Assembly (NCBI GenBank): GCA_964601515.1
Contig: CAZRNU010000018.1
Coordinates: forward strand, 1 to 34,521
DNA length: 34,521 nt
Direction of reading: 5' to 3'
Origin: an uncultured Bacteroidales bacterium
Lineage (GTDB): Bacteria; Bacteroidota; Bacteroidia; Bacteroidales; UBA7960
Positions 15,236 to 33,237 of the stretch are shown piece after piece. The translations under genes and the position numbers were made by a program. The notes below the pieces were generated by a model. It saw only the letters and a program-made list of their open reading frames with translations. It was not told the DNA's origin and did no database searches. Position 1 is the first letter of the stretch. Every line of letters begins with the position of its first letter.

Positions 15236-15246
15236 TTATTACATAT

Positions 15247-15897
15247 ATGAGCGGCAATAGTATTAAGGTTTTTATTGTAGATGACCATGAGATTTTTAGA
15301 AATGGGCTGAAAATGGTTTTAGGACGGCTTAAATATGTTGACCTTGCAGGTGAAGCAGAAAACGGGCAGGAGTTTGTCAATATGCTTAAGGAGGTTGTTC
15401 CTGATATTGTATTAATGGATATTGAAATGCCTGTTCTTAACGGTATAGAAGCATCAAAGACAGCACTGAAACTTCATCCCAAACTAAAAATAATTGCTCT
15501 AACAATGTTTGGTGATGATGAATATATTCAAAGCATGATGGATGTGGGGGCCAAAGGGTTTCTTATGAAAAATATTAATAAAGAAACTCTGGATAAAGCT
15601 ATTCTTACTGTTCATAATGGCGGAAATTATTACTCGGAAGAGTTGTTCGAGTTTTTTACGAAACAGTTTACAAAAGAAAAAGAATCACCTGAATCGGATT
15701 TAAACCTTACCCGCCGAGAAAAAGAAATATTACAACTTCTTTGCGAAGGTTTGAGTAACAAAGAGATTGCTGATGCTTTGTTTATAAGTGAACGCACTGT
15801 TTTAGGACATAAAACAAATCTTCTTACAAAAACCAACACCAAAAACTCATTAAGTTTGATGGCGTATGCTATTAAGAAGAAGCTGGTTGTTATTTAG
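15247..15897 (+). CDS. NarL/LuxR-family DNA-binding response regulator (REC + HTH_LuxR)
   Basis: 216 aa. VDDHEIFRNG...VLMDIEMP receiver. C-terminal LTRREKEILQLLCEGLSNKEIADALFISERTVLGHKTNLLTK LuxR-type HTH. 11 nt downstream of the kinase. Confidence 0.9.
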   Translation: MSGNSIKVFIVDDHEIFRNGLKMVLGRLKYVDLAGEAENGQEFVNMLKEVVPDIVLMDIEMPVLNGIEASKTALKLHPKLKIIALTMFGDDEYIQSMMDVGAKGFLMKNINKETLDKAILTVHNGGNYYSEELFEFFTKQFTKEKESPESDLNLTRREKEILQLLCEGLSNKEIADALFISERTVLGHKTNLLTKTNTKNSLSLMAYAIKKKLVVI

Positions 15898-15943
15898 GTT
15901 TAAGGTATAGGGTATTAGGTATAGGGTATTAGGTATTAGGTTG
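15895..15943. repeat. Heptamer tandem array (TAGGTTT AAGGTAT AGGGTAT TAGGTAT AGGGTAT TAGGTAT TAGGTTG). It fills the convergent gap between the response regulator stop (15895-97) and the hydE stop (15929-31), and overlaps the last 5 codons of hydE.
   Basis: Direct reading with period 7. Same unit family as the arrays at 18221-18255 and 33702-33757. Confidence 0.8.
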
Positions 15944-17011
15944 TCTTTCCAGGAATCTTTTAGAATCGCCCCACTCTCCATATCCTATTTCTGCACCCGC
16001 AAGTTTTATTCTACCTTCAATGCAGTTAGCACAATCTTCCGAGCTTTCATCTGTGCAAGGTTTATTCTCGTACAATTTATAATTGTCGCGGTAAATTCCT
16101 GGAGTTATGTTTGGCATTAAGATGTTTGCTCCAATGCGTATTGCTTTTTCTCTTCCAATTTTATCAATTGCCTGAAGAGCAGTGGTTGCAGCAATATTAA
16201 TGTCTTTCATCATTATTCTTAAAATTGCAACCATCTTTAGTGCTAGTCTGAAACGTTCTTCAAGTGGAATCAGGTTGTCTTTTTCTGAAAATAATGGTGT
16301 ATCGGCGTGCTCAATATATGGTCCCATGCCACACATGTCAATATCCATTTCTTTCATAAATAATAGATCATCTGCCAGATTTTCAATGGTTTGAAATGGC
16401 AACCCAATCATTACACCTGTTCCAACCTGAAATCCGATTTTCCTTAGTAATGATAAGCATTCAATCCTTTTTTCAAAACTATGGTTATTGTCGTTTGGAT
16501 GAAGTTTAGAATATAATTCTTTATTTGAAGCTTCAATACGCAACAGATATCTGTGAGCACCGGCATCATACCATTTGCGATATACTTCTTCAGTTTGTTC
16601 ACCACACGATAGTGTGATACCTAATTTGCCGTTAGATATCTCTTTTATTTGTTTTACCAGATTCTCAATTCTTGCAGTATTATTTTCACTTTGCAATTCA
16701 CCTGATTGAATAACAACAGAGCCGTAATTACTTTTTAAAGCAAAAGCAGCGGCTTCCAAAACTTCATTATCAGTTATATTATATCTTTCTACTTTCTTGT
16801 TGTCTCTTCTTATTCCACAATAATAACAGTTTTTTGAACAAATGTTAGACAGTTCTATTAAGCCTCTCAGATACACTTTATTCCCAATATAATCCTCTTT
16901 TACTTTTGATGATTTTTCGAAAATCAATTTCAAATCATCTTTTTCAGCATTAAGCAAAGTGATTAATTCATTTTTAGAGAAGCTCTCCTTATTTAAAATG
17001 TCTTTAACCAT
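15929..17011 (-). CDS. hydE: [FeFe]-hydrogenase maturase HydE (radical SAM, BioB-like)
   Basis: Radical-SAM CxxxCxxC (CSKNCYYCGIRR). Size and fold of BioB-like HydE. Sits with hydF and hydG. The ORF track start 17059 overlaps hydF by 56 nt; the ATG at 17011 (MVKDILNK...) gives an 8-nt overlap and is preferred. Confidence 0.8.
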   Translation of the reverse strand: MVKDILNKESFSKNELITLLNAEKDDLKLIFEKSSKVKEDYIGNKVYLRGLIELSNICSKNCYYCGIRRDNKKVERYNITDNEVLEAAAFALKSNYGSVVIQSGELQSENNTARIENLVKQIKEISNGKLGITLSCGEQTEEVYRKWYDAGAHRYLLRIEASNKELYSKLHPNDNNHSFEKRIECLSLLRKIGFQVGTGVMIGLPFQTIENLADDLLFMKEMDIDMCGMGPYIEHADTPLFSEKDNLIPLEERFRLALKMVAILRIMMKDINIAATTALQAIDKIGREKAIRIGANILMPNITPGIYRDNYKLYENKPCTDESSEDCANCIEGRIKLAGAEIGYGEWGDSKRFLERQPNT

Positions 17012-18215
17012 TGTTTTTTTGTTTAGTAAATGGTTGAGTAACTCTTTCAAAAATTCCATTAACCCAAGCTATAGCCATTCCATAGTTTGTAATTGGAATA
17101 TTTGCATGTTCGAATGGTTTTAGGCGAGAGATAATCTGTTTTCTTGTTACCATGCATCCGCCACATTGAATTACCATCTTGTAATTATGTATAGGTTTTT
17201 CAACAGCCGCAAGTCCTGCAACTATATCGAAGTTTAGCTTTTTTCCTGTATGATTTTCCAGCCAACGAGGAATCTTATGCCTTCCAATATCATCGCAACT
17301 TACGTGGTGAGTACAAGATTCAAGTATTAATAAGTTATCACCGTCTTCAAGCTTATCAATCATAGGTGTTCCGTTAAGAAATGCTTCGAAATCTCCTCTA
17401 AGCTTAGAAAAAACTATGCTGAAGCTTGTAAGCATTATATCGCTGGGAACAATTTTTGAAACAAAATTAAATACCTGACTGTCGGTAACAACAAGTGCTG
17501 GTTTTATGCCAAGTTTGAAAAAATCTTCCAACTCAGTTTCTTTAACCGACATACAAATACAATCATTATCAAGAACGTCTCTCCATGCCATAACCTGAGG
17601 CAAAATCATTCTTCCTTCCGGAGCTTCTGAATCAATAGGTGTAACCAGCAGTACAACATCTTTTGGCATTACAATCCCTTTAAATAATGAAGGTTTTGCA
17701 TAAGCAGTTTCCGGAATTGTTTTTTTTATTAAATCAACTAACTCATCAAAGTTGTTATGAACTTTGTTACTGAATGAGAAGGGTTTTTTACCTAGAAGGC
17801 TTAATATCTTTTCTGAAAAATCTTTTTCAAGGGGAACTATGTCTGACTTATTATGGATAATTATAAATGGTATTTCATAATAATTAAACTGATTAACAAG
17901 ACTTTCCTCGAATTCTCCATAAGTATTATCAGTGATTAGCATTATCCCAAGATCAATAACGGGAATCACTTGCAGTGTTTTCTCAATTCTAAGTTTTCCT
18001 AAATCACCAATATCGTCAATACCTGCTGTGTCAATAATTATTGCAGGACCAACTCCAAATATTTCAACTGACTTTTTAACAGGATCAGTTGTAGTTCCGG
18101 GATGGTCTGAAACAATCGCAATATTTTGCCCTGTGAGAAGATTGATAAATGAGCTTTTGCCATTGTTTCTTCTACCAAAAATTCCGATATGTGGTTTTAA
18201 ATCTTTGCCTTTCAT
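17004..18215 (-). CDS. hydF: [FeFe]-hydrogenase maturation GTPase HydF
   Basis: 403 aa. N-terminal G-domain (GRRNNGKSSFINLLTG, DTAG, NKSD). C-terminal cluster-binding CTHH...CGGC motif characteristic of HydF. Confidence 0.88.
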   Translation of the reverse strand: MKGKDLKPHIGIFGRRNNGKSSFINLLTGQNIAIVSDHPGTTTDPVKKSVEIFGVGPAIIIDTAGIDDIGDLGKLRIEKTLQVIPVIDLGIMLITDNTYGEFEESLVNQFNYYEIPFIIIHNKSDIVPLEKDFSEKILSLLGKKPFSFSNKVHNNFDELVDLIKKTIPETAYAKPSLFKGIVMPKDVVLLVTPIDSEAPEGRMILPQVMAWRDVLDNDCICMSVKETELEDFFKLGIKPALVVTDSQVFNFVSKIVPSDIMLTSFSIVFSKLRGDFEAFLNGTPMIDKLEDGDNLLILESCTHHVSCDDIGRHKIPRWLENHTGKKLNFDIVAGLAAVEKPIHNYKMVIQCGGCMVTRKQIISRLKPFEHANIPITNYGMAIAWVNGIFERVTQPFTKQKNNG

Positions 18216-18360: not shown

Positions 18361-19788
18361 CTAAAAATAAAGATCTCTTTTTCCGTTTTTAAGTTGTTCT
18401 ATCCTTTCTCTAAGCTTCGCTTTAACCTTTTCATCAGGCAGAGCTTCTATATTCTTTTCAATTACTTGCCATCCCTTATGCGATGTGTTTTCAGGAGCGT
18501 AATCTAAAAGGTACTCAGCCAAGGTTAGAATAGCATTTGGAGAACAAAACCTTTTTATAAAACCAGGAACAGAAAATTCCATGAAATGTTCACCTGTTCT
18601 GCCAAGTCGATAGCATGCAGTACAAAAAGAAGGTAACATATTATGGTCAAGAAGTTCCTCTATAATTTCGTTTAAGGATCTTTCATCATTAATACGAAAC
18701 TGACCTTTGTTCAAATCTTGTTCTGTGTTTTGGGTTCTGGAATAACTTCCAAGTTCAAGTTTAGTACCACCGTCAATTTGACTAACACCGTAATTTATAC
18801 ATTCATTTCTAATTTCTTTGGGTTCGCGAGCAGTTAGTATCATACCTGTATAAGGTACCGCAAGCCTTAGTATTGCAATCATTTTTGCAAAGTCGCTGTC
18901 GCTAACAATATATTTTGATCCCATTTGAAGCATTGAAGCATCTTTAATTCTTGGGAAAGAAATTGTATGAGGACCAACATTATAGCAGGCTTCAAGATGA
19001 TTAGTGTGTCTTATTAATCCTAAAACTTCATATCTCCAATCATATAGACCGAATAATGCACCAATGCCAACATCATCTAATCCGGCTTCCTGAGCTCTGT
19101 CTAGAGAAGTTAATCTATAATTGAAGTCAGCTTTTTTACCTCTTATATGATATGTTTTGTATGCTTCAGGGTGGTATGTTTCCTGAAATACCTGAAAAGT
19201 TCCAATTCCGGCTTCTTTTACTTTTCTAAATCCTTCAATTTCTAGGGGAGCAGCATTTATGTTTACTCTTCTAATCTCACCGTTGCCTTTTTTTACCGAG
19301 TATGCAAGCTTTGTGCAATGTGCAATATAGTCGGCATCGTATTGATCGTGTTCGCCAAAAACAAGGATTAAACGTTTTTGCCCGTTATCTTCAAGTGCTT
19401 CTATTTCTTGTGTAATTTCAATATCAGACAGAGTCTTTCTTACAGCATCTTTATTGCTAGCTCTGAATCCGCAATATGTACAGTTGTTTTTACATTTATT
19501 ACCAATGTATAATGGAGCAAAAAGAACGATGCGATTACCATAAATGTTTTCTTTAAGTTTACGAGCACCATCTTTTATCATTTCTACCAGGTCAGGATCA
19601 GTTGTGTTTGTTAAAACAGCAGTTTCCTGCATGCTAAGCCTGTTTTTTGATAGAGATTTTTCAATGATATCTTTAATTAATGCTCTGTCAGGTTTTGCAT
19701 TGTTAAGTATGTCATGAATCTCTTCAGGGTCAATGAAAGGCTGCATTGGCGCATCGGGAATCCTATATTGTTGAGTAATAAATTTCAT
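18361..19788 (-). CDS. hydG: [FeFe]-hydrogenase maturase HydG (radical SAM, ThiH-like tyrosine lyase)
   Basis: 475 aa. CKNNCTYCGF radical-SAM motif. C-terminal auxiliary-cluster cysteines (FCTACYRLGRTGEHF...FCSPNA). ThiH-like length. Confidence 0.88.
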   Translation of the reverse strand: MKFITQQYRIPDAPMQPFIDPEEIHDILNNAKPDRALIKDIIEKSLSKNRLSMQETAVLTNTTDPDLVEMIKDGARKLKENIYGNRIVLFAPLYIGNKCKNNCTYCGFRASNKDAVRKTLSDIEITQEIEALEDNGQKRLILVFGEHDQYDADYIAHCTKLAYSVKKGNGEIRRVNINAAPLEIEGFRKVKEAGIGTFQVFQETYHPEAYKTYHIRGKKADFNYRLTSLDRAQEAGLDDVGIGALFGLYDWRYEVLGLIRHTNHLEACYNVGPHTISFPRIKDASMLQMGSKYIVSDSDFAKMIAILRLAVPYTGMILTAREPKEIRNECINYGVSQIDGGTKLELGSYSRTQNTEQDLNKGQFRINDERSLNEIIEELLDHNMLPSFCTACYRLGRTGEHFMEFSVPGFIKRFCSPNAILTLAEYLLDYAPENTSHKGWQVIEKNIEALPDEKVKAKLRERIEQLKNGKRDLYF

Positions 19789-19816: not shown

Positions 19817-20935
19817 TTAAGCAGGAATTTTTATTATAAACTTGCTTCCAACATCAGGAGTGCTTTCAACTCTAATGTTGCCCTTATAAAGTTCCACCAT
19901 TTTTTTTGCTATAGATAGCCCCAATCCGCTTCCGGTAATGAACTTTGTTTTGTTGTTTTTAATTCTGACAAAATCTTGGAATAACAACCCTATCTCATCT
20001 TCCGACATTCCTATTCCGGTATCTTCAATAACGATATCTATATTTCCACCATTTTTTCGCAGAGAAACAAAGACCTCACCGTTTTCTTTGTTGTATTTTA
20101 CAGCATTAGAAATCAGGTTATTAAGAATAATTTCAACCTCGTTTTTATCGGCCATCATAAACAAAGACTCATCACAATCCATTTTTAGTTTAATGTTTCT
20201 TTGAATCGCTAGAGGTTCAACTGAGTCAGCTACGGTTCTTGCTATTTCTATAATGTCAATATTTCTTAAATCGCGATTTTTCTTTCCTGATTCCATTCTT
20301 GTAAGGTCGAGCAAGTCGAGGATTAGGTTTCTCATACCTTTAATCCTTTCTATCGACCTATCAACCATTTCCATATAATCATCAAGGTTGTTTCCTAACT
20401 GCTGATCTTTCATCATTTTAAGATAGCCCTCAATTGCATTAATGGGAGATTTTAGTTCGTGAGAAAGAACTGATAGAAATTGAAAGCGAATCTGTTTTCC
20501 TTCTTCTTTCATTTTTCTTGTCATTCTCCTCAAGAATAGATTTTTTGTAATATTTTCGACAGAAGTTTTTAGCTCCTGAGGTGTAAATGGCTTTGGAACG
20601 AAATTAAATGCACCATTATTAGTTGCTTTTATTGCTAATTCAAGTGAAGCGTAGGAAGTAATCATCATAACAGAAATGTCATATTCTTTATTTTTGATAT
20701 ACTCTAAAACTTCAATGCCATCAATACCGGGAAGCTTGTTGTCAAGCAAAATAATATCAAAAGGCGTAGAATCAATCATTTCTATAGCCTTTTCACCAGT
20801 TTCTGCCTCATAGATTTCAAACGTAAAATCTTCATCCATAAAAGGATAGCCTACTGAGAAATCTCTAAGGACTCTCTCGGCTCCTGATCTGATGCCCGGT
20901 TCATCATCTACGATTAATAATTTTAAGGCGCTCAT
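19817..20935 (-). CDS. Hybrid REC-histidine kinase (N-terminal receiver, then HisKA + HATPase_c; no sensor or TM domain)
   Basis: 372 aa. Receiver LLIVDDEPGIRSG...ILLDNKLPGIDG. H-box LSHELKSPINAI. N-box ISNAVKYN. G1 EDTGIGM. G2 GSGLGLS. Confidence 0.85.
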   Translation of the reverse strand: MSALKLLIVDDEPGIRSGAERVLRDFSVGYPFMDEDFTFEIYEAETGEKAIEMIDSTPFDIILLDNKLPGIDGIEVLEYIKNKEYDISVMMITSYASLELAIKATNNGAFNFVPKPFTPQELKTSVENITKNLFLRRMTRKMKEEGKQIRFQFLSVLSHELKSPINAIEGYLKMMKDQQLGNNLDDYMEMVDRSIERIKGMRNLILDLLDLTRMESGKKNRDLRNIDIIEIARTVADSVEPLAIQRNIKLKMDCDESLFMMADKNEVEIILNNLISNAVKYNKENGEVFVSLRKNGGNIDIVIEDTGIGMSEDEIGLLFQDFVRIKNNKTKFITGSGLGLSIAKKMVELYKGNIRVESTPDVGSKFIIKIPA

Positions 20936-20938
20936 AAC

Positions 20939-21337
20939 TTATATTTTTAAAAGTTTATTTATTTCTCTATGAAGTTGATCCGGTCTTAGGCCTTTTTCAA
21001 GGTATAAGTCGGCTTTTATCCATCCTCTGTCAGTTTCATCTTCCAGGCTGAAAATCATTCCTGTTTCCGAAGTCATTGCAGAAGCAATAATTACAGGTAC
21101 TTCAGGGTAGCGGTTTTTAATTCTATGACTAAGGATAAAGCCGCTATCTTTATTTTCCATCATAAGATCAAGAATTGCAAGGTCAGGTTTGATTTTGCCA
21201 ATCATGTCTTCACCTTCCTTTTGGCCGCAAGCACTTATTACTTCAAAGCCAATGCTTTCAAGAATCTTTGTCATTTGAAAGATATAGTCTACATCGTCAT
21301 CTACCAGAAAGATTTTCTTTTTATTATTTGTTTCCAT
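20939..21337 (-). CDS. Single-domain response-regulator receiver (CheY-like); paralogue of 27636..28136
   Basis: KKIFLVDDDVDYIFQMTKILESIGFEVISA...KPDLAILDLMMEN. No output domain. The ORF track start 21400 overlaps the upstream gene; the ATG at 21337 (METNNKKKIF...) is preferred. Confidence 0.8.
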   Translation of the reverse strand: METNNKKKIFLVDDDVDYIFQMTKILESIGFEVISACGQKEGEDMIGKIKPDLAILDLMMENKDSGFILSHRIKNRYPEVPVIIASAMTSETGMIFSLEDETDRGWIKADLYLEKGLRPDQLHREINKLLKI

Positions 21338-21347
21338 AGCTATTTTT

Positions 21348-23333
21348 TTAATTAATTCTAGGTAATGTAATTTTAAATTCTGTTCCTGTTTGGCCCGCAT
21401 TTGGGTTTGAGTTTGATTTTACTGCAATTTTACCACTGTGCATTTTAATAATACCATAAACAAGTGGTAGCCCTAATCCGGTTCCTTTTCCTATTTCTTT
21501 AGTTGTGAAAAATGGAGTAAATAGTTTATCCATATTTTCTTCAGGTATTCCTGAGCCTGTATCACAGATGTTTATTTCGATATGTTTATCATCTCCATTT
21601 ACGAATATATTTATCTCCCCACCTTCAGGCATTGCTTCAATGGCATTTTTTTCAATGTTTGTAAAAACCTGAATCATTTGGTCAGGGTCAAGCATTAAGA
21701 ATGGGTCTGATATTCCTGAAATTACAGATGTTTTAATGTTTGCAGGAATAACCACAGAGTCCAAACTGTGATGTAAAAACTCCACAATATCAACCTCCTG
21801 AACTTTAATTTTATTTTTTCTTGCAAAGTTTAGCAAGCCACTAACAATACCTTTGCATCTGTGTGCTTGTTCAACAATCAAAGCAACATCTTTTCGAAGA
21901 GGGTCTTCAGTTTTTAGCTCATCGAGAATAATATTGCTGTACATGGTAATTACACCAAGTGGGTTATTTAACTCATGAGCTATTCCGGCAGAAATTTGCC
22001 CCATATTTGCTAGTTTCTCGGAATGTTTCAACGCAAGCTTTGTGTTTTTAAGCTTTTCATTTGAGTCGTTTAGATCAGCAACATATTTGTGCAATTTCTC
22101 TATTGTATAAGGCAAGCACATTTCAGATTCAGCATAGCCTTGTACTACAGATATTGCATGTTCATAGCATGTTTCATAGCCACAGGCACCACAATTTAAA
22201 TAATCAGAAGTTTTTATCTTACCCATTCTATTAAGAACTTGCTTAATTTCCTCCTGATCAGGGTCAGATATTCTCCTGTCTAGTGCTCTGAATGTTTGCG
22301 AAAGATTTAGGTCTTTGTAATTATCTATATTCTGATTCCACTTTTCTAAATCTAGATTAGCAATTTTCTCTTTAACATATTTGCTGATTTGGGATCGTTT
22401 AAAGAAATACTTGTTCTTTTCACTCATCCCCGGGCCTAAAATACAGCCTTCACAGCAAAGAAGTTCCAGATTATAGTTTGAAATTTCGCCTCTTTCAAAT
22501 TCTTTGATAGCTTCTTTAAAGTTGTGCTTTCCAGAATCTACTATAACATTTCCTTCTGCGATATTATCGCTCTTTTTTAGGTTTTGCGACAAGCCTCTTG
22601 TTACAGGGAAAATGGCACCCATTGCTGATTGCGGTCCGTCAAAATCTCCAGCTTCAACTTCGCTTGAAGTTATTTTATATTTCTCAAACAGATCGCGTAA
22701 TTCTCGGAATGTTATTGCAACATCAATTTCGTCAGATTCAGCTTTTTTTGCAAAACAAGGCCCTATAAAAACTGTTTTTACATTATTCCCGTATGTTTCT
22801 TTTATTAGTCTTGATGTTGCCACCATCGGAGAAACAATAGGAGCAATTTTATTTACAAGTTCCGGATGAAAATGTTCTATATAAAAAACTACTGCCGGAC
22901 AATCTGAAGAAATAAATGTTTGTTGTGAATTGTCTTCTAATAGTTGATTATATTTTTTTGCAACAAGATCAGCGCCGAATGCTACATCAAACACTTTATC
23001 GAATCCCAGTTTTCTTAACATTCCTGTAAGAATTCTATAGTCATTTATATCAGTAAATTCAGCTGGGAAGCTAGGTGCAAGCAGTGCATATACCGGCGCT
23101 TCTTTTGTTTGCAAGAGTGATTCTACCTCTGATTTTAAATCCAGTACAACTTTAGCATTTTGACTACAAACAGAAACACAATTACCACATCCAATACATC
23201 TTTCACTTAGTACCTCTGCCTGTCCGTTTATTATTTTTATTGCTTTAACAGGACATTCCCTCACGCAGGTAAAGCAAACCCTGCATTTATCTTTCACTGT
23301 GAATACTAATTCATTTCTTTTTGCATGTCCCAT
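21348..23333 (-). CDS. [FeFe]-hydrogenase-like (H-cluster-type) domain fused to a histidine kinase: putative sensory hydrogenase kinase (HydS-like, no PAS)
   Basis: 661 aa. aa 17-56: two 4Fe-4S ferredoxin motifs (CRVCFTCVRECP, CIGCGNCVSVC). aa ~70-300: domain alignable to adjacent HydA, with SSDCP (cf. TSCCP), GPCFAKKAE (cf. MPCTAKKFE) and LLCCEGCILGPG (cf. EVMACPGGCINGGG). An extra 4-Cys cluster, NCGACGYETC...EMC. Coiled-coil linker. H-box AGIAHELNNPL. N-box EKNAIEAMPEGG. G-boxes CDTGSGIPEE and GKGTGLGLPLV. Confidence 0.8.
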   Translation of the reverse strand: MGHAKRNELVFTVKDKCRVCFTCVRECPVKAIKIINGQAEVLSERCIGCGNCVSVCSQNAKVVLDLKSEVESLLQTKEAPVYALLAPSFPAEFTDINDYRILTGMLRKLGFDKVFDVAFGADLVAKKYNQLLEDNSQQTFISSDCPAVVFYIEHFHPELVNKIAPIVSPMVATSRLIKETYGNNVKTVFIGPCFAKKAESDEIDVAITFRELRDLFEKYKITSSEVEAGDFDGPQSAMGAIFPVTRGLSQNLKKSDNIAEGNVIVDSGKHNFKEAIKEFERGEISNYNLELLCCEGCILGPGMSEKNKYFFKRSQISKYVKEKIANLDLEKWNQNIDNYKDLNLSQTFRALDRRISDPDQEEIKQVLNRMGKIKTSDYLNCGACGYETCYEHAISVVQGYAESEMCLPYTIEKLHKYVADLNDSNEKLKNTKLALKHSEKLANMGQISAGIAHELNNPLGVITMYSNIILDELKTEDPLRKDVALIVEQAHRCKGIVSGLLNFARKNKIKVQEVDIVEFLHHSLDSVVIPANIKTSVISGISDPFLMLDPDQMIQVFTNIEKNAIEAMPEGGEINIFVNGDDKHIEINICDTGSGIPEENMDKLFTPFFTTKEIGKGTGLGLPLVYGIIKMHSGKIAVKSNSNPNAGQTGTEFKITLPRIN

Positions 23334-23358: not shown

Positions 23359-25083
23359 CTATAAAAGAACATCTCTTTTGCAATAATGTGTGTGAAGCAA
23401 TTCATGAGATTTGTGACCTAGCGGTTTGCCAAGGAAATCTTTGTAAATTTGAATGATTTCAGGGTTCTTATGTGATACCTTGATTGTTTCTTTGTCATCA
23501 ATATCATATAATGCTTTCATTCTGGCTTTTACAGCTTCCTCAGAGGCTCCAATGTGTTGTCCGCCTCCATTAATACAACCACCCGGGCAAGCCATTACTT
23601 CAATGAAATGATAGTTTTTCTTACCTTCATTAACTTGTTTCAACAGTTTTCTTGCATTAGCAAGTCCGTTTACAACGGCAACATTTACTGTTAGACCATT
23701 TATTTCAAGAGAAGCTTCTTTACAACCATCTAATCCCCTTAAAGCCTCAATTTTAAATCTCATTAATTCTTCTCCGGTAAGCATGTTATAAGCTGTTCTA
23801 ACTGCAGCTTCCATAACCCCACCTGATGCGCCGAATAGTTTTCCGGCAGAACTTCTGAATCCAAGAGGAGAGTCAGTTGTTTCAGGTGCGATATTGTTTA
23901 TATCTATGCCAAACATTCTGATAAGCTGACCTAATTCACGGGTTGTAAGCACTGCATCTACATCAGTAATTCCTTTATTGGTCATCTCTTCTCTTTGTGC
24001 TTCAAATTTCTTTGCAGTACAAGGCATGATTGAAACTGAATAAATATTTTCAGGTTTTATTCCGGCTTTTTCAGCCCAGTAAGTTTTTATTACTGCACCC
24101 ATCATTTGTTGAGGTGATTTACAGCTTGATAAATTTGGAAGCATCTCAGGATAAAACTCTTCAGCAAATTTTACCCAACCCGGACAACAACTTGTTATCA
24201 TTGGAAGTGTTCCACCTGTTTTTACTCTCTCAACTAGTTCGGCAGCTTCTTCCATAATTGTAAGGTCTGCTGTGAATGTTGTGTCGAAAACATATTTGAA
24301 TCCGATTTTACGCAATGCTGCATTCATAACGCTGTTAATATCCAATCCGGCAGGAAGCTTGAATTCTTCTGCAAGTGATACTGAAATTGATGGAGCATAC
24401 TGAACAACAACAGTTTTTTCCGGATTATTTAGCATTGCAATCAATTCAGGGAAGTGGCTTTTTTCTGATAAAGCTCCAGTAGGACAAACCATAATACATT
24501 GACCGCAGTTTACACAGCTTGATGTATTTAGTCCAATATTAAATGCTGAACCAATAACCGATTGACTACCTCTATTGATGAAGTCTATGCAGGCAACACC
24601 CATTACATCTTCACAAATACGAACACAACGTCCGCAAAGGATACATTTGTCAGGATCTCTAACAATGCTTGCACTCGACCTGTCAAGATGATTGCTGTTT
24701 TTAACTCCTTTTATTCTGCGTTCACGAACCTGTAATTCTTCTGATAAGTCTTGAAGTTCACAATTTTTGTTTCTTACGCAGTAAAGACAGTCATCCGGGT
24801 GGTTTGATAAAAGCAGCTCAACAATGGTTTTTCTTGACTCAATAACACGAGGAGAATGAGTAAGCACCTTCATGCCTTCTTCTACCGGTGTTGAGCATGC
24901 AGTAACTAATCTGTTAGTGTTAACATTTTCAACTACACACATACGGCAGGAACCTGAAGGAAAGCTACCTTTTATATGGCAAAGAGTTGGAATATGAATG
25001 CCTTGTCTTTTTAATGCATCCAGGATAGTTTCACCTTTCCTTGCTTCGATTTGTTTATTATTGACTTCTATTAAAAAACTCAT
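23359..25083 (-). CDS. hydA: [FeFe] hydrogenase catalytic subunit HydA (CpI-like M3 architecture)
   Basis: 574 aa. N-terminal plant-type 2Fe-2S (CHIKGSFPSGSCRMC...C). His-ligated 4Fe-4S (HPDDCLYCVRNKNC). Two ferredoxin-type 4Fe-4S (CILCGRCVRICE, CVNCGQCIMVCP). Canonical H-cluster motifs TSCCPGW, MPCTAKKFE, EVMACPGGCINGGGQ. Confidence 0.93.
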   Translation of the reverse strand: MSFLIEVNNKQIEARKGETILDALKRQGIHIPTLCHIKGSFPSGSCRMCVVENVNTNRLVTACSTPVEEGMKVLTHSPRVIESRKTIVELLLSNHPDDCLYCVRNKNCELQDLSEELQVRERRIKGVKNSNHLDRSSASIVRDPDKCILCGRCVRICEDVMGVACIDFINRGSQSVIGSAFNIGLNTSSCVNCGQCIMVCPTGALSEKSHFPELIAMLNNPEKTVVVQYAPSISVSLAEEFKLPAGLDINSVMNAALRKIGFKYVFDTTFTADLTIMEEAAELVERVKTGGTLPMITSCCPGWVKFAEEFYPEMLPNLSSCKSPQQMMGAVIKTYWAEKAGIKPENIYSVSIMPCTAKKFEAQREEMTNKGITDVDAVLTTRELGQLIRMFGIDINNIAPETTDSPLGFRSSAGKLFGASGGVMEAAVRTAYNMLTGEELMRFKIEALRGLDGCKEASLEINGLTVNVAVVNGLANARKLLKQVNEGKKNYHFIEVMACPGGCINGGGQHIGASEEAVKARMKALYDIDDKETIKVSHKNPEIIQIYKDFLGKPLGHKSHELLHTHYCKRDVLL

Positions 25084-25101: not shown

Positions 25102-27054
25102 TTATACTATTTCAATTGCTTCAAATTTGCATACATCATAGCAAGCACCACATCCGATACATTTATCTTCTACAATAAAATGAGGAGCTTTTTTACTACC
25201 TATGATGGCATTAACAGGACATTTTTTTGTACATACTGTACAACCTGAGCATTTATCAACGTCTATTTTATATACTTTCAGGTTTTGGCAAACTCCTGCA
25301 GGACAATGTCTGTCGAAAACGTGAGCTTCATATTCGTTTTTAAACCATTTTAGTGTACTTAATACAGGGTTTGGAGCTGTTTGTCCTAAGCCACAAAGTG
25401 AAGTGTCCTTAATAACTTTGCTTAGCTTTTCAATTTGCATTACACCTTTAAATCTGTCAAGAGCTTCAGTTTTGTCGTTAGCATTAGGTTTTGATGTTAT
25501 ACTTTCAAGGATTTCAAGCAGTCTTTTTGTTCCTTCACGGCAAGGGATACATTTTCCACAGCTCTCGCGCTGAATAAATCCCATAAAGAATTTTGCAACA
25601 TCAACCATGCAAGTTTTGTCATCCATTACTACAAGTCCACCTGATCCCATCATTGCACCAACTTTAATTAAGGATTCGTAGTCAATTTGAATATCCAGGT
25701 TTTCTTCAGTTATGCAACCGCCTGATGGTCCACCTATTTGAACAGCTTTAAATTTGCCATTATCCATAATACCGCCGGCAATATTGAAAAGGATTTCTCT
25801 AACGGTTGTTCCCATTGGAATTTCAACAAGACCTGTAAGAGCAATTTTGCCTGATAAAGCAAATACTTTTGTTCCTTTGCTGTTTTCTGTTCCGGTTGAT
25901 GCAAACCAATCTGCCCCGTTTTCTATAATAGTAGAAACATTTGCAAAAGTTTCCACATTGTTTATTACAGTTGGTTTTCCAAATAGTCCGCTTGTAGTTG
26001 GGAATGGTGGTCTTGGGCGTGGCATACCTCTTTTACCTTCAATGCTATGCATTAACGCCGTTTCTTCACCGCAAACAAAAGCACCTGCACCTTTTTTGAT
26101 TTTTATTTCAAAATCAACTCCTGTTTCAAAAATATTTTTTCCAACGAGTCCGTATTCTTTTGCTTGTTTAATTGCTATTTCAAGTCTTTCAATTGCTAGT
26201 GGGTATTCTGCACGAATATAAATATATGCTTTAGTTGCTCCAATTGCATAAGCTCCAATTGCCATACCTTCGATTAGCTTATGAGGGTCACCTTCTATAA
26301 CAGCTCTGTCCATAAAAGCACCCGGATCGCCCTCATCTGCATTGCAAATAAGATATTTCTGATCACTTTTTTCAGAGTTTGCAAATTTCCATTTGCGACC
26401 TGTTGGGAAGCCACCGCCCCCTCTGCCTCTTAATCCGCTTTTTTCAATAATGTCGCATACTTCAAAAGCAGTATATGAATTGATGGCTTTAATATAACTT
26501 TTATATCCGCCTCTAGCAATGTATTCTCCAATGTCAACCGGGTCAATTATACCACAGTTTTTCAATACCAATCTTTTTTGTGGAGCGAAAAAAGGATGTT
26601 CGTTCAAGAATTTTGCACCTTGCCATTTTGATGCACCCGGCAATTCTATTTGCCCTAAGATTTCTGCATCCGGAAGTTCAAGATTGAAAATGCTGTTTAG
26701 AGCTTTTTCAACTTTTTCTTCTGTCATATTTTGTAAAGCAAGTCTGTTGTGCCCCGGAAGTTGAACATCGAGAATTGGCTCAACTGCACAAAGGCCTATA
26801 CATCCGGTTTCAATAACCTTAGCTGTGATGTTTTTTTCGTTCAGGTATTTTTTTACGGCTGAAAGGGTTTTGCCGGCTCCGGCACCAAGACCGCATGTTC
26901 CCGAACCTACATATATTAAAGGTTCGCTTATTTTTTCATGACGTAATATAGAAATTTGCTCAAGCAATTCTTTGTCTTTTGAATTGTTTGTAAAATCCCT
27001 CAAAACATCATTAATAAGGAAATCTTTTACGGAATTATTATTTTGTACGTTCAT
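25102..27054 (-). CDS. hydB: NuoF-like flavoprotein subunit HydB of trimeric [FeFe] hydrogenase (NAD(H)- and FMN-binding, multiple Fe-S)
   Basis: 650 aa. N-terminal thioredoxin-like 2Fe-2S region. FMN/NADH block GRGGGGFPTGRKW. 51-kDa-subunit 4Fe-4S motif ESCGKCIPCREGT. Two C-terminal ferredoxin motifs (CSGCTVCTKKCP, CIGCGACYDVC). Confidence 0.9.
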   Translation of the reverse strand: MNVQNNNSVKDFLINDVLRDFTNNSKDKELLEQISILRHEKISEPLIYVGSGTCGLGAGAGKTLSAVKKYLNEKNITAKVIETGCIGLCAVEPILDVQLPGHNRLALQNMTEEKVEKALNSIFNLELPDAEILGQIELPGASKWQGAKFLNEHPFFAPQKRLVLKNCGIIDPVDIGEYIARGGYKSYIKAINSYTAFEVCDIIEKSGLRGRGGGGFPTGRKWKFANSEKSDQKYLICNADEGDPGAFMDRAVIEGDPHKLIEGMAIGAYAIGATKAYIYIRAEYPLAIERLEIAIKQAKEYGLVGKNIFETGVDFEIKIKKGAGAFVCGEETALMHSIEGKRGMPRPRPPFPTTSGLFGKPTVINNVETFANVSTIIENGADWFASTGTENSKGTKVFALSGKIALTGLVEIPMGTTVREILFNIAGGIMDNGKFKAVQIGGPSGGCITEENLDIQIDYESLIKVGAMMGSGGLVVMDDKTCMVDVAKFFMGFIQRESCGKCIPCREGTKRLLEILESITSKPNANDKTEALDRFKGVMQIEKLSKVIKDTSLCGLGQTAPNPVLSTLKWFKNEYEAHVFDRHCPAGVCQNLKVYKIDVDKCSGCTVCTKKCPVNAIIGSKKAPHFIVEDKCIGCGACYDVCKFEAIEIV

Positions 27055-27056
27055 AA

Positions 27057-27518
27057 TTATTCTTGATTACGATAGTTATCCAAAATTTCTTTAATCGATT
27101 CGCCTGTTACTTTTGCATGGAAGTTCCCATTAATTGCTATAACAGGTGCGAGTCCGCATGCTCCGATACAAGCCACAACCTCAAGGCTGAATACACCATC
27201 CCTTGAGGTTTGACCTGATTTAACTCCAATATTTTTTTCTATTTCATCCAAAACTGTTGCTGAGCCAAGAACGTGACATGCTGTACCCCTGCATACCTGA
27301 ATATGATTCTTGCCTAGTGGGGTAAATCTAAATTGGTTGTAAAATGTTGCTACTCCAAATATTTTACTTGCCGGCATCTTTAAATACTGTCCAACCTCAA
27401 TTACTGCTTCTTTCGATAAATATCCATCATGATCTTGAATGTCTTGCAGTATTGGAATTAGGCTGTCAGCACTTCCTTCAGGATAATTTGTTAGAATTGA
27501 TTTTATGTTTGTTTCCAT
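27057..27518 (-). CDS. hydC: NuoE-like thioredoxin-fold [2Fe-2S] subunit HydC
   Basis: CRGTACHVLGS...CIGACGLAPV cysteine pattern of the 24-kDa subunit family. The ATG at 27518 (METNIKSILTNYPEG...) is preferred over the ORF track start 27617, whose 33-aa extension has no family-like sequence. Confidence 0.85.
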   Translation of the reverse strand: METNIKSILTNYPEGSADSLIPILQDIQDHDGYLSKEAVIEVGQYLKMPASKIFGVATFYNQFRFTPLGKNHIQVCRGTACHVLGSATVLDEIEKNIGVKSGQTSRDGVFSLEVVACIGACGLAPVIAINGNFHAKVTGESIKEILDNYRNQE

Positions 27519-27635
27519 AATTCTTTTTATAAAACCTTGTAAAGGATATTTGTGTCTAAAACTTCTTGATATTAATTGATGCCAGTTGAACGATGAAATA
27601 CTACTTACCACTAACAACTGTCAACTATGCAATAA

Positions 27636-28136
27636 TTACTTGATATGTTTTTCAACTTCTGCAGTAAGTTTTTCTGCCTCAACTGGTTTTCTAATGAACC
27701 CATTTACCGGGAACCAATATGTTTTTCCATCTTCACCTTTATAATCAATTCCTGCTGTTCCGTCATTGATGTTTTTTACAAGAAGAACCTGTAAATCTTT
27801 AAAGTTTGGATCTTTTCTGTATTCACGAGCCATTTCCTGAACAGCTGCTTTAGAAGTAACAAGAATGTCTATTGAAGACTGGATTAGGAAAGGAATGTTT
27901 TTTACTTCAGGGCTGTTTAGAATTGCTTGAGCTAGTTCAAAACCTTCGTAAGGAGTTGTCATCATTACGTCAAGAATTGCAAGGTTGGGTTTTTCATTGC
28001 GAAGCTTTTCAAGACCTTCGGTTTTGCTCATTGCAGAGATTACTTCATAACCGGCTTTGGTTAAAACTGCTTTTACTAATGTGATCACATCGATGTCGTC
28101 ATCTACGATTAGAATTCTTTTTTTTGTTGTTTCCAT
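27636..28136 (-). CDS. Single-domain response-regulator receiver with about 45-aa C-terminal tail; paralogue of 20939..21337
   Basis: KRILIVDDDIDVITLVKAVLTKAGYEVISA...KPNLAILDVMM. Shares the block pattern V/LDDD-x-D-x-I...G(F/Y)EVISA...KP(D/N)LAILD(L/V)MM with the other receiver. No output domain. Confidence 0.8.
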   Translation of the reverse strand: METTKKRILIVDDDIDVITLVKAVLTKAGYEVISAMSKTEGLEKLRNEKPNLAILDVMMTTPYEGFELAQAILNSPEVKNIPFLIQSSIDILVTSKAAVQEMAREYRKDPNFKDLQVLLVKNINDGTAGIDYKGEDGKTYWFPVNGFIRKPVEAEKLTAEVEKHIK

Positions 28137-28518: not shown

Positions 28519-30312
28519 ATGAAAGAAAAAATCATTAGTATCATTGAGTCTTACGGCAAAACCCCGGGGCGTTTGATGGATATCTTGTTGTCTGTTCAGG
28601 CAGAATTCAGATGCGTATCGGAAGAAGCAGTAAGCCTAATCGCCTCTGAACTTGGTATTTCAGAAGCAGATGTAAATCAAACCAAAACTTTCTACCATTT
28701 TTTCACAACCAAACCGGTTGGGAAATATGCAGTTTACATGAACAACAGTGTAACATCAGTTATGATGGGCATGTACGATGCAGTAGATGAGTTTGAAAAG
28801 CTGGCCGGAATCAAGTTTGGTCAAACAACTCCTGATGGGCTAATTAGCCTTAACTATACTGCATGTATAGGAATGAGCGACCAGGAACCTGCTGCATTGA
28901 TTAACAATGTAGTTTTTACAGAACTAACTCGCGAAAAAGTTAGAAAGATTGTTTCTGATATGCGCGATGGAAAGCCTGTTGAAGCTATGTTTAATGAGTA
29001 TGGCGACGGAAACAACGGAAATCCGCTTGTTAAATCAATGGTTAAAAACAACATTCGTAAAAGAGGAAATGTAACTCTTGGAGATTATGAAGTAGGTAAA
29101 GGTTTATCAATTGCTCTATCAAAAAGTTCGCAAGAGGTTATTGATGAAGTGAAAAACTCAAACCTTCGCGGACGTGGTGGTGCCGGTTTCCCAACAGGAT
29201 TGAAATGGCAGTTTTGCTCTAAAGAATCAGGAGACAAATACGTTATGTGTAATGCTGACGAAGGCGAACCAGGAACATTCAAGGATAGAGTACTTCTAAC
29301 AGAACGTGCTAATATGGTTTTTGAAGGTATGGCAATTGGTGGCTATGCTATCGGAGCAAAAGAAGGTGTTTTATATTTAAGACATGAATATAAATATTTG
29401 AAAGCTTTTATGGAAAGCGTTCTAGCTGACCTAAGAAGCAAAAATATATTAGGCAACAACATTCTTGGAAAAGGATTCAATTTTGATATTAGAGTTCAGT
29501 TTGGAGCCGGAGCTTATGTGTGCGGTGAAGAATCTGCTCTAATTGAATCTTCTGAAGGAAAACGAGGAGAACCTCGTAATCGTCCTCCTTTCCCTGTTCA
29601 AAAAGGATACAATGCTAAACCTACAGTAATTAACAATGTTGAAACATTCTGTTCAGTTGTTAAGATAATGGAAAACGGAAGTGCATGGTATAAAGGAATG
29701 GGTACTGAAGAATCTGCAGGTACAAAATTATTAAGTATTTCAGGTGATTGCAAATTCCCGGGAGTTTATGAAATAGAGTGGGGAATGACAATCGCAGATA
29801 TGCTTCAAATGGTTGGTGCTGAAGATGTTCAGGCAGTTCAGGTTGCCGGACCTTCAGGAATTTGCTTACCTCCTGCTCAGTTTAACCGCAAGATTGCAAT
29901 TGAGGATCTTGCAACAGGTGGTTCTATGATAGTAATAGGTGCAAATCGCGACCTTATTAAAGATGTAGTATTAAACTTCATGGAATTCTTTGAAGATGAG
30001 TCTTGTGGATCTTGTGTAACATGTCGTTCATTTAATATGATTCTTAGAAAGCAGGTGAAGAAAGTTGTTGACGGAAGAGGTATTAAATCTGACCTTGACA
30101 ACATGTTGGCATGGGGTGAGATTATGAGAAAAACCAGTCGCTGCGGTTTAGGACAAACTGCTTCAAACCCTGTTTCAACAACAATCAAAAACTTCCTTGA
30201 TTTATATAATGTGAGAGTTAAAGATGCTGAGTATCAAAGTGATTTTGATATGCATAAAGCTATTGTAGAATCATGCGAAGTTGTTGGTCGTCCTGCAAAT
30301 ATTCATGAATAA
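28519..30312 (+). CDS. hoxF: NAD(H)-binding diaphorase subunit HoxF (NuoF-like) with fused, cluster-less NuoE-like N-terminal domain
   Basis: 597 aa. N-terminal ~150 aa thioredoxin-like but lacking the CxxxxC...CxxxC ligand set. FMN block GRGGAGFPTGLKW. 4Fe-4S ESCGSCVTCR. Confidence 0.85.
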   Translation: MKEKIISIIESYGKTPGRLMDILLSVQAEFRCVSEEAVSLIASELGISEADVNQTKTFYHFFTTKPVGKYAVYMNNSVTSVMMGMYDAVDEFEKLAGIKFGQTTPDGLISLNYTACIGMSDQEPAALINNVVFTELTREKVRKIVSDMRDGKPVEAMFNEYGDGNNGNPLVKSMVKNNIRKRGNVTLGDYEVGKGLSIALSKSSQEVIDEVKNSNLRGRGGAGFPTGLKWQFCSKESGDKYVMCNADEGEPGTFKDRVLLTERANMVFEGMAIGGYAIGAKEGVLYLRHEYKYLKAFMESVLADLRSKNILGNNILGKGFNFDIRVQFGAGAYVCGEESALIESSEGKRGEPRNRPPFPVQKGYNAKPTVINNVETFCSVVKIMENGSAWYKGMGTEESAGTKLLSISGDCKFPGVYEIEWGMTIADMLQMVGAEDVQAVQVAGPSGICLPPAQFNRKIAIEDLATGGSMIVIGANRDLIKDVVLNFMEFFEDESCGSCVTCRSFNMILRKQVKKVVDGRGIKSDLDNMLAWGEIMRKTSRCGLGQTASNPVSTTIKNFLDLYNVRVKDAEYQSDFDMHKAIVESCEVVGRPANIHE

Positions 30313-30346
30313 ATCATTAAAGTGTTAACAAAAAAATCAATATAAA

Positions 30347-31051
30347 ATGAGTGAAAAAGTGAAATTCACAATAGACGGCAAAGAATTCGAAGGTGCAAAA
30401 GGACAACTTCTTGTTGACGCTGCAGCTGAAAACGGAGTGTATATTCCGGTACTTTGCCATTGGAAAGATGTAATTCCCGCAGGTTCATGCAGGATATGTA
30501 CCGTTAAAGTTAACGGACGTTATGTTGCTGCCTGTACTACTCCTGTTGAAGATGCATGTGTTGTTGAAAACAATACACCGGAGCTTCAGGATATAAGAAA
30601 AGCTATAGTTGAGATGTTATTTGTTGAAGGAAACCATTTCTGCCCCGCATGTGAAAAGAGTGGAGATTGCGACCTTCAGGCACTTGGATATCGCTACCAA
30701 ATGATGGTTCCTCGCTTTCCATATGCTTTTGAAAGAAGAGAACTTGATGCTACTTCTCCAAAGATTTTTCTTGAGAAAAACCGTTGTATTTTCTGCAAAC
30801 GCTGTGTTCGTATGATTAAAAACGAAAAAGGACAAAGCTATTTTGCATTTAAAGGCAGAGGAAAACATTTAGAAATTTCTATGGATAGAAAACTTGCTGC
30901 TACAATGACTGATGCACTTGCTGAAAAAGCAATGAAAGTTTGCCCTGTAGGCGCAATTTTACGCAAGGAAGTAGGATTCTCTACTCCAATCGGAAAAAGG
31001 AAATATGATAATGTTCCAATTGGTTCCGATATTGAAAAATTACAAAAATAA
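30347..31051 (+). CDS. hoxU: Fe-S subunit HoxU (NuoG N-terminal-like: 2Fe-2S plus 4Fe-4S ferredoxin motifs)
   Basis: 234 aa. CHWKDVIPAGSCRICTV...C (2Fe-2S). HFCPACEKSGDC (4Fe-4S with His). CIFCKRCVRM. Confidence 0.8.
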   Translation: MSEKVKFTIDGKEFEGAKGQLLVDAAAENGVYIPVLCHWKDVIPAGSCRICTVKVNGRYVAACTTPVEDACVVENNTPELQDIRKAIVEMLFVEGNHFCPACEKSGDCDLQALGYRYQMMVPRFPYAFERRELDATSPKIFLEKNRCIFCKRCVRMIKNEKGQSYFAFKGRGKHLEISMDRKLAATMTDALAEKAMKVCPVGAILRKEVGFSTPIGKRKYDNVPIGSDIEKLQK

Positions 31052-31067
31052 AAAGGGAGGATAAAAA

Positions 31068-31616
31068 ATGAGTAAACCAGTAATAGCAACAGCTTCGTTA
31101 GCAGGATGTTTCGGATGTCATATGTCAATTCTTGATATTGATGATAGAATTCTGCAACTTATTGAACTTGTTGAATTTAATAAATCACCAATAGATGATA
31201 TCAAAGAATTTACTAAGCAATGTGATATAGGTATTATTGAAGGTGGTTGCTGCAACAGCGAAAACGTACATGTTCTGAAAGAATTCAGAAAACACTGCAA
31301 AATTCTTATTTCATTAGGTGAATGCGCAATTATGGGCGGACTTCCTGCAATGAGAAATGGTATTCCTGTTAAAGAGTGCCTTGAAGAAGCATATTGGGGT
31401 GGCCCAACCGTTGGTGAAAATAAAGAGAAAATTATGCCTAACGATGAAGAGCTTCCAATTATTCTTGATAAAGTTTATCCATTACATGAAATTGTAAAGA
31501 TAGATTATTATCTGCCGGGATGTCCTCCAAGGGCTGACTTAATCTGGCAAGCAGTTGTTGCGCTTGTAACAGGTGATGAGTTAAATATTCCTTATGAATT
31601 AGTTAAGTTTGATTAA
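31068..31616 (+). CDS. hoxY: [NiFe] hydrogenase small subunit HoxY (NuoB/20-kDa-like, group 3)
   Basis: 182 aa. Proximal-cluster cysteines (GCFGCHMS ... GECAIMGG ... LPGCPP). Short form typical of bidirectional or F420-type small subunits. Confidence 0.8.
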   Translation: MSKPVIATASLAGCFGCHMSILDIDDRILQLIELVEFNKSPIDDIKEFTKQCDIGIIEGGCCNSENVHVLKEFRKHCKILISLGECAIMGGLPAMRNGIPVKECLEEAYWGGPTVGENKEKIMPNDEELPIILDKVYPLHEIVKIDYYLPGCPPRADLIWQAVVALVTGDELNIPYELVKFD

Positions 31617-31631
31617 AAAAAAAGTGAAATA

Positions 31632-33140: not shown

Positions 33141-33237
33141 TTCTTTTTATTGAGTTTTCAATTGGGCTTGGATTTAATATTTAGGTAAACTTTGTTTACT
33201 TTTGCCGCGAATATTATTAAATCTTTTAAGTGATAAA

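Follow-up and report, generated by a model that had tools for sequence, protein, structure and literature searches.

The question raised by this locus is whether a second [FeFe] hydrogenase domain (H-domain), fused to a histidine kinase and encoded directly behind a catalytic hydrogenase subunit, is an enzyme, a sensor of H2 or something else. The locus lies on contig CAZRNU010000018.1 of assembly GCA_964601515.1, from an uncultured Bacteroidales bacterium; the window analysed, 34,521 nucleotides (nt) long, is the entire metagenomic contig. A first-pass annotation, made from the letters of the window, had described the H-domain of this 661-residue protein, here called the sensor, as non-canonical in its three H-cluster motifs (L1, L2 and L3) compared with the neighbouring HydA, and had read the changes as the pattern of a slow, sensing H-cluster. 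Our analysis suggests that the sensor is probably a Group C (HydS-type) putative H2-sensing [FeFe] hydrogenase fused to a HisKA/HATPase kinase and part of an hydCBA operon. An H-domain and kinase fused within an hydCBA cassette is a kind of protein that has already been described; the mildly new part is a conserved natural Asp at the proton-relay position. The features on which the argument depends are the following, with residue equivalences to HydA/CpI.

21348-23333, minus strand: the sensor open reading frame (ORF), 661 amino acids (aa), from the ORF list and also called as a 661-aa gene on public contigs.
23154-23297, minus strand: N-terminal 2x[4Fe-4S] ferredoxin-like domain, aa 13-60 (Pfam matches of the Fer4 family).
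22431-23096, minus strand: H-domain, Fe_hyd_lg_C (PF02906), aa 80-301, E 1.1e-48.
22890-22910, minus strand: L1, SSDCPAV, aa 142-148; D144 (codon 22902-22904) stands at C299, and C145 equals C300, a ligand of [4Fe-4S]H.
22737-22763, minus strand: L2, GPCFAKKAE, aa 191-199; G191 equals M353, C193 equals C355 and K196 equals K358.
22422-22466, minus strand: L3 of the sensor, ELLCCEGCILGPGMS; L292 equals M497, C293 equals A498, C294 equals C499 and C297 equals C503.
22116-22193, minus strand: Cx2Cx4Cx16C motif, putative fourth [4Fe-4S] cluster (PF04060 match, aa 379-408).
21816-22004, minus strand: HisKA (DHp) domain, aa 444-506, with phospho-acceptor H453 (codon 21975-21977) (Pfam).
21357-21689, minus strand: HATPase_c catalytic domain, aa 549-659, with conserved N, G1, F and G2 boxes (Pfam).
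23359-25083, minus strand: HydA, 574 aa, group A, NADH-dependent/bifurcating, 25 nt upstream of the sensor.

The motif strings quoted by the first-pass annotation were all found at their places in both proteins. In HydA, whose residue numbering is by coincidence the same as that of Clostridium pasteurianum CpI, they are TSCCPGW (297-303), MPCTAKKFE (353-361) and EVMACPGGCINGGGQ (495-509). Three comparisons agree that they are the true L1-L3 equivalents: BLASTP of the sensor against HydA (26% identity, E 1e-26), phmmer against structures in the PDB, where the best-scoring CpI entry for the first 423 residues of the sensor was the C299D variant 6GLZ (L1 TSDCPGW), and hhalign of a 23-sequence sensor alignment against a 17-sequence HydA alignment (probability 99.8%, E 1.9e-30). 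The hhalign map, read from CpI/HydA to sensor, gives the equivalences listed above and further places S319 at A164, F417 at F242, A230-P231-S232 at A86-P87-S88, E279 at K127, E282 at Q130 and R286 in a gap, with P500 deleted. The replacement of the first Cys of L1 by Asp, the loss of the L2 Met, the 25-nt gap between the genes and the shorter distance from the L2 Cys to the L3 Cys (101 aa in the sensor, 144 aa in HydA) all held as described. The range 22133-23126 given for the H-domain does span it, but equals aa 70-401.

The four cysteines that are ligands of the H-cluster are kept in the sensor, as had been claimed (C145, C193, C294 and C297), and so are K196 and S88 of A86-P87-S88, both of which bind CN ligands. 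The ligand cysteines, K196 and the APS stretch are invariant among close homologues, and the ligand cysteines and K196 also across 80 species-level orthologues; for the latter, one genome per species was scanned, at least 549 species had a relative, and the best 80 loci were compared. The group A proton pathway of E279, E282, R286 and S319 is absent from the sensor. These four residues, together with C299, M353 and M497, are invariant in the HydA family alignment, and HydA has the full group A architecture in Pfam and matches the NCBIfam model FeFe_hydrog_A6 (NADH-dependent, group A6) at 841 bits, above its cut-off of 765. Judged by alignment, the second-sphere residues of the sensor are non-catalytic, with M353 changed to Gly, M497 to Leu and no E279/E282/R286/S319 pathway. 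Two other residues of this region are invariant in the 23-sequence alignment. Arg246 (R246-G247, 22593-22598, minus strand) aligns with G421 of the group A 'GGV' stretch, which adjoins the H-cluster, and Tyr128 (22950-22952, minus strand) lies in the helix that bears E279 and E282 in group A; the latter is Tyr in 74 of the 80 orthologues and in 106 of 150 more distant representatives. Either residue could be part of an alternative hydrogen-bond network.

The description of L3 stood only in part. The sensor carries ELLCCEGCILGPGM as L3, and the string LLCCEGCILGPGMS is present at aa 291-304 (window 22422-22463), but the two L3 strings that were set side by side at first reading are offset by one residue, since the sensor motif begins at E290, which equals E495. 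The Gly-rich loop had been called shortened. One residue is indeed lost between the ligand cysteines, giving CX2C (C-E-G-C) where HydA has CX3C (C-P-G-G-C), but the GPGM that follows is of the same length as GGGQ of HydA. The change of M497 to L292 and the additional Cys293 at A498 had not been mentioned. A register in which C293 would be the equivalent of C499 and CX3C would be preserved was considered and rejected: 25 of the 44 kinase-bearing distant representatives carry Phe at this position and others Tyr, Ala or Ser. Since these relatives (LFCEGC and similar) offer just one Cys ahead of xGC, the ligands must be C294 and C297, and the CX2C spacing is real. In the full set of 150 representatives, Cys is far less common directly before the first L3 ligand than one of Phe, Tyr, Ala, Ser, Leu or Met, and the CxGC form is present in 43 of the 44 in which phmmer detected a kinase domain. 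Cys293 itself (22455-22457, minus strand; LLCC) is conserved in 69 of the 80 orthologues, with Ala, Gly or Ser elsewhere, and may serve as a spare ligand or, close to [4Fe-4S]H, as a redox-active thiol.

The 150 distant representatives were taken from 1.8 billion cluster representatives; almost all are 34-48% identical to the sensor over its first 420 residues, and the set includes a few fragments at up to 61% identity. A kinase domain was flagged in 44 of them by phmmer at E<=1e-5, a division that is approximate, as other kinase types were possibly missed. The M353 position is Gly in 140 of the 150 and in all 80 orthologues, the M497 position is mostly Leu, and the L2-L3 spacing runs from 98 to 123 aa with a median of 107. 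The representatives of about 575 aa, probably of the PAS type, mostly have CX3C in L3. At the C299 position the set has Ala in 45, Pro in 24, Thr in 20, Ser in 18, Cys in 17, Asn in 8 and His in 6, with others in the rest. In the published description of Group C, with which this pattern agrees, position 299 is Cys in 17% and Ala in about 43%, and position 353 is Gly in about 51% (PMC10055695). By these alignments the non-canonical L1, L2 and L3 are traits of the family and not a quirk of the sensor gene, the exception being the Asp at C299.

This conservation also bears on whether the divergent motifs are simply those of a decaying HydA paralogue without a function of its own. The 26% identity to the neighbouring HydA and the position of the sensor far below every NCBIfam hydrogenase cut-off (182 vs 450 bits) could be taken in that sense. 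However, the ORF and the kinase boxes are intact, and the motifs are invariant both in 120 close homologues and in 80 species with conserved synteny, so that the conservation data refute decay and leave it practically no probability. Since L1-L3 are invariant or nearly so in these 120 homologues and 80 orthologues, they are not a product of chance.

The domain order along the sensor in Pfam is a ferredoxin-like domain, the H-domain, the C-terminal iron-sulphur (FeS) motif and the histidine kinase, and the 120 homologues, which are 59-92% identical to it, have the same architecture. In the 23-sequence alignment of close homologues all eight cysteines of the ferredoxin-like domain (C17, C20, C23, C27 and C46, C49, C52, C56) are invariant. 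So are the four of C381-x2-C384-x4-C389-x16-C406, an exact Cx2Cx4Cx16C, which is the defining motif of the HydS subclasses M2e and M2f (PMC8163306). The kinase boxes are likewise invariant: H453 in SAGIAHELNNPL, N563, D591xG593xG595, FFTTK and G617xG619xG621. The HisKA and HATPase_c matches lie above their Pfam cut-offs, and the best solved relative of HATPase_c is the cytoplasmic domain of ZraS; Foldseek matched the sensor to [FeFe] hydrogenase structures and to the ZraS kinase domain, at the level of overall folds only. A search of the PDB gave no solved structure of the HydS type. No PAS domain, the signalling domain of the M2f type, was matched by Pfam at E<=0.01; HisKA and HATPase_c are fused in its stead, and users of HydDB have placed such HK-fused forms in Group C (PMC11406978). 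The public names of homologues are vague ('4Fe-4S binding protein', 'histidine kinase') because none of the NCBIfam hydrogenase models attains its cut-off with the sensor: the group A model scores 102.5 bits against 405.95, and the B1 model 182.6 bits against 450. The prototypical group A motifs (TSCCPxW, MPCxxKxxE and ExMxCxxGCxxG with CX3C) deviate in all three cases.

Membership of Group C is supported by the ligand cysteines and Lys, the N-terminal clusters, the Cx2Cx4Cx16C motif, the altered C299, M353 and M497 positions and the adjacent group A hydrogenase. The features of Group D (M2e) are lacking, as G191 stands at M353, a kinase is fused and Leu248 is found at the probable equivalent of its E252. 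Changes at C299, M353 and M497 have been reported for TmHydS and TamHydS, both of low activity (PMC10055695, PMC8163306), and the Cx2Cx4Cx16C motif and the linkage of HydS to group A hydrogenases have also been described (PMC8163306). The sensing role fits the fusion of a histidine kinase to the H-domain. Slow turnover and H2 sensing by the protein would be in line with these features. The slow-sensing motif pattern claimed at first reading is the one published for the slow TmHydS and TamHydS (PMC10055695, PMC8163306, PMC10407848), except in the Asp, which is an odd rather than an expected feature because Ala, Pro, Ser or Thr occupies that position in most of Group C (PMC10055695).

Asp stands at the relay position in 115 of the 120 close homologues and in 68 of the 80 species orthologues, nearly all of these labelled Bacteroidota. 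The 12 orthologues without it are the most divergent and carry Ser, Thr, Asn or Ala; seven are labelled as other phyla, four as Bacteroidota and one as 'uncultured bacterium' only. Among the 150 distant representatives Asp is found in three, two of them fragments of the sensor's own family and one an unrelated 574-aa protein. Asp144 is, on these counts, a derived signature almost confined to Bacteroidota-labelled orthologues and strongly conserved there. The literature searched yielded no report of a natural Asp at C299 in Group C, and the sole published frequency data for position 299 list Cys, Ala, Pro, Ser 'etc.' (PMC10055695).

The Asp had first been read as an alteration of the proton-relay Cys. 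C299 is indeed changed, but the relay is not simply lost: Asp is the only C299 replacement that keeps substantial H2 evolution in group A (PMC6226526, PMC9563086): Asp variants of CpI, CaI and HydA1 keep 10-58% of it (PMC6226526, PMC9563086), and in the assays of Duan et al. C299D CpI and C169D HydA1 retain 30-80% of H2 release (PMC6226526). In the C299D crystal structure the Asp carboxylate hydrogen-bonds the amine of the azadithiolate (adt) (PMC6226526). H2 oxidation by the Asp variants falls to 0.02-4% of wild type, a bias toward evolution (PMC9563086). One could therefore suppose that the sensor is a working if slow hydrogenase, in which Asp144 is a true catalytic relay and the kinase is regulated by electron flux and not by simple H2 binding. 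The activity of the C299D, C298D and C169D variants, at either published range, and the strong conservation of Asp in the clade would agree with this. However, E279, S319, E282 and R286, which link position 299 to the surface, are all missing, and Asp144 is for that reason unable to feed the canonical pathway. The replacement of M353 and M497 is a feature shared with slow sensory enzymes. In other phyla the orthologues within this cassette have Thr, Ser, Asn or Ala at the relay position, which means that the cassette works there with no carboxylate. We consider a true catalytic relay improbable.

Our tentative proposal, put forward as one possibility, is that Asp144 is an evolved carboxylate partner of the adt amine, a dead-end base in a pocket without a proton exit. 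Such a base may, again tentatively, let the sensor split one H2 and hold a reduced, protonated state, and in this way determine both the threshold for H2 and how long the signal lasts. If this is true, Asp144 would be a third natural solution at the site, beside the catalytic Cys and the displaced Glu of Group D. A natural Asp144 also offers a ready test of the ideas derived from C299D, namely that directionality and rate are governed by the pKa of the first proton acceptor.

In the proposed mechanism for the Group C sensor, H2 would be split at the H-cluster slowly or stoichiometrically, the proton would pass from the adt amine to Asp144 without an onward pathway, and the electrons would pass to the accessory clusters. 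The redox state of the C-terminal cluster would then act on the helix that runs into the DHp domain, as its last ligand, C406, lies at the start of that helix. This coupling would set autophosphorylation at H453, and the phosphoryl group would be transferred to the adjacent receiver protein and the receiver-kinase hybrid. The relay would tune expression or activity of the hydrogenase through an output outside the conserved cassette. In the AlphaFold2 (AF2) model C406 stands immediately before a helix predicted, at low confidence, from residue 407.

Several points weigh against this picture. The AF2 model is only moderate (mean predicted local distance difference test score 69.8) and is poor at L3 (296-304) and in the linker 409-465, so the coupling of cluster to helix is proposed from sequence position. 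The literature searched contained no characterised Group C member fused to a histidine kinase (HK), and the sensory role of the whole of Group C is still called putative (PMC8924675). The sensor might even turn over, by analogy with the group A variants in which Asp at the relay position supports real H2 evolution. Finally, the conserved cassette includes no DNA-binding output regulator.

It is also conceivable that the protein senses redox state and not H2, with an H-domain that holds [4Fe-4S] only or an H-cluster that is unreactive to H2 in vivo. In such a version the kinase would report the redox state of ferredoxin/NADH, possibly while the protein is docked on HydABC as an additional 'T' subunit. 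Four FeS clusters are predicted in the protein, and its gene is a strict neighbour of hydCBA. The name 'BfuT' in the literature counts it as a subunit, and the same study could hardly find H-cluster motifs in some Group C proteins (PMC11406978). Yet the bridging C297, K196 and the APS stretch, which serve only the [2Fe] subcluster, are invariant across the 80 species, and both characterised relatives, TmHydS and TamHydS, react with H2 and carry a normal H-cluster (PMC10055695, PMC8163306). We regard both the H2-unreactive domain and the kinase reporting on ferredoxin/NADH as unlikely.

The Group C reading includes membership of an operon, and the gene row around the sensor is as follows.

27636-28136, minus strand: stand-alone receiver at the head of the row (Pfam), kept in about 25 of the 80 related loci.
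27057-27617, minus strand: HydC, NuoE-like 2Fe-2S subunit; the public call is 153 aa, with a start further in.
25102-27054, minus strand: HydB, NuoF-like flavoprotein subunit (domain and NCBIfam matches).
20939-21400, minus strand: stand-alone receiver after the sensor, likely phosphoryl acceptor (Pfam), present in 80 of 80 loci.
19817-20935, minus strand: hybrid receiver-HisKA-HATPase kinase, a second relay kinase (Pfam), present in 76 of 80 loci.
18361-19788, minus strand: HydG, H-cluster maturase.
17004-18215, minus strand: HydF, H-cluster maturase.
15929-17059, minus strand: HydE, H-cluster maturase; all three maturases match NCBIfam equivalogs above their cut-offs.

The order on the minus strand is thus receiver, hydC, hydB, hydA, sensor, receiver, receiver-kinase hybrid, hydG, hydF and hydE. 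No terminator-like site was found on the coding strand from 28136 to 15929. A promoter scan gave 33 matches against 45.6 expected by chance, the type scanned being not that of Bacteroidota promoters. The receivers near the sensor have normal acceptor motifs in their sequences. Read from its first ATG (21400), the start used by public calls, the receiver ORF after the sensor overlaps the 3' end of the latter by 53 nt; its internal Met22 (ATG at 21337) stands 8 nt (21340-21347) past the sensor stop, the Pfam receiver domain begins at aa 30, and the shorter form that starts at Met22 may be the real one.

The cassette of hydC, hydB, hydA, sensor, receiver and receiver/kinase hybrid is conserved in the 80 species wherever the contig reaches, with one exception (locus L074), and hydA adjoins the sensor in every related locus with sufficient upstream flank (77 of 80). 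The hybrid kinase is missing from four loci, three of them cut by the contig end and only L074 truly without it. Most of the 80 records are labelled Bacteroidota (Bacteroidales, Lentimicrobiaceae, Draconibacterium, Lutibacter, Rikenellaceae), and the labels at about 50% identity include Planctomycetota, Hydrogenedentota, Fermentibacteria, Nitrospiraceae and Neomarinimicrobiota. Members of the family are common among anaerobic Bacteroidota living in sediments, digesters and habitats of that kind, where they probably tune H2 production by the bifurcating hydrogenase.

In 36 of the 80 loci (L008, L011-L013, L016, L022-L023 and others) a second, divergent sensor-type hydrogenase gene lies upstream of hydC on the opposite strand, as at 410-1915 (minus strand) of L012; the window has the stand-alone receiver at that place. 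With a length of about 630 aa and 34-40% identity to the sensor, this second paralogue has Asn at the relay position (ITANCP), the L3 NLFFCxGCLLG and the Cx2Cx4Cx16C motif. No kinase was detected in it, its C-terminal part not having been scanned against Pfam. The same duplication has been reported in three Bacteroidota genomes (PMC11406978).

Two further systems flank the row. A Hox-type NAD-linked [NiFe] hydrogenase-like system of four genes (28519-33083, plus strand) is divergent from the hyd row and encodes a NuoE/NuoF fusion of 597 aa, a HoxU-like FeS protein of 234 aa, a small subunit with Oxidored_q6 of 182 aa and a NiFeSe_Hases large subunit of 483 aa. After it come a 162-aa ORF without a Pfam match (33202-33690, plus strand) and, on the opposite strand, the nickel regulator NikR (33766-34185, minus strand). 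On the other side, adjoining hydE, lies a two-component pair (13148-15897, plus strand) of a Cache_3-Cache_2/PAS/HisKA_3 kinase of 695 aa and a receiver-GerE (LuxR-type) protein of 216 aa. No DNA-binding response regulator other than the latter (15247-15897) was identified in a scan that covered the ORFs between 13148 and the window's end; ten ORFs of 120 aa or longer precede the scanned part. HisKA_3 kinases normally pair with LuxR-type regulators, and this one stands beside its own Cache/PAS HisKA_3 kinase, so no link of the regulator to the hydrogenase sensor is implied.

H2 sensing by Group C is still unproven, and the characterised TmHydS and TamHydS have no assayable enzymatic output. 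In the sensor the H-domain and C-terminal FeS cluster run straight into a kinase, with a cognate receiver encoded next door, which makes for a simple biochemical read-out. Through H2-dependent autophosphorylation, this family could allow H2 sensing at an [FeFe] site to be read out directly in vitro for the first time.

Among known systems, TmHydS of Thermotoga maritima (Group C/M2f) shares with the sensor the two N-terminal [4Fe-4S] motifs, the four ligand cysteines and the C-terminal four-Cys motif. In both, C299, M353 and M497 are replaced (A131, G177 and S267 in TmHydS), the group A proton pathway is absent and the gene is linked to a group A hydrogenase operon (PMC10055695, PMC8163306). 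The two differ in that TmHydS lacks a kinase and has a PAS domain at its C-terminal end, whereas the H-domain/FeS module of the sensor runs into HisKA-HATPase; the relay position is Ala in TmHydS and Asp in the sensor, and the M497 position Ser and Leu, respectively. Closer in arrangement is 'BfuT' (Group C3, HK-type, sub-type V bfuCBA-T), encoded like the sensor directly downstream of the catalytic subunit gene and fused to a kinase (PMC11406978). BfuT was called hydrogen-sensing, and its clusters were described from Hydrogenedentota, Caldithrix abyssi (Calditrichota) and some Bacteroidota, in a study that included no analysis of active-site residues (PMC11406978). The Hydrogenedentota orthologues in our sample (L074 and L080), about 50% identical to the sensor and in the same cassette, have Thr and not Asp at the relay position. 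The Bacteroidota genomes of that study, like the 36 loci mentioned above, have a second, putatively PAS-type paralogue upstream of hydC where the window has a receiver gene. HydDB lists a subgroup 'C1 histidine kinase-linked (putative)' (PMC5037454), and HK-fused proteins downstream of bfuA have been called C3 (PMC11406978); we count the sensor as Group C and leave its subgroup open, the labels C1 and C3 being inconsistent in the literature.

TamHydS of Thermoanaerobacter mathranii (Group D/M2e) resembles the sensor in its N-terminal FeS clusters, its Cx2Cx4Cx16C motif, the lack of a PAS domain and a Leu at M497. It uses a carboxylate next to the adt amine, E252, for proton exchange (PMC10407848). 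The carboxylate of the sensor would likewise be near the adt amine, but E252 (with E289 behind it) is on a different strand, and TamHydS has Ala at C299; the sensor has Leu248 at the probable E252 position, an equivalence drawn from group A having Val there. Group D also has Ser or Thr at M353 and no fused signalling domain, in contrast to the Gly and the fused kinase of the sensor. The engineered variants CpI C299D (PDB 6GLZ), CaI C298D and CrHydA1 C169D share with the sensor an L1 of the kind xSDCP. They are laboratory constructs in which Asp feeds an intact E279-S319-E282-R286 pathway, whereas the Asp of the sensor is natural and conserved. The regulatory [NiFe] system HoxBC-HoxJ (Group 2b), in turn, is like the sensor in that a slow hydrogenase module controls a kinase regulating hydrogenase genes (PMC5037454, PMC5665086), although its metal site and fold are unrelated and its kinase is a separate subunit and not a fusion.

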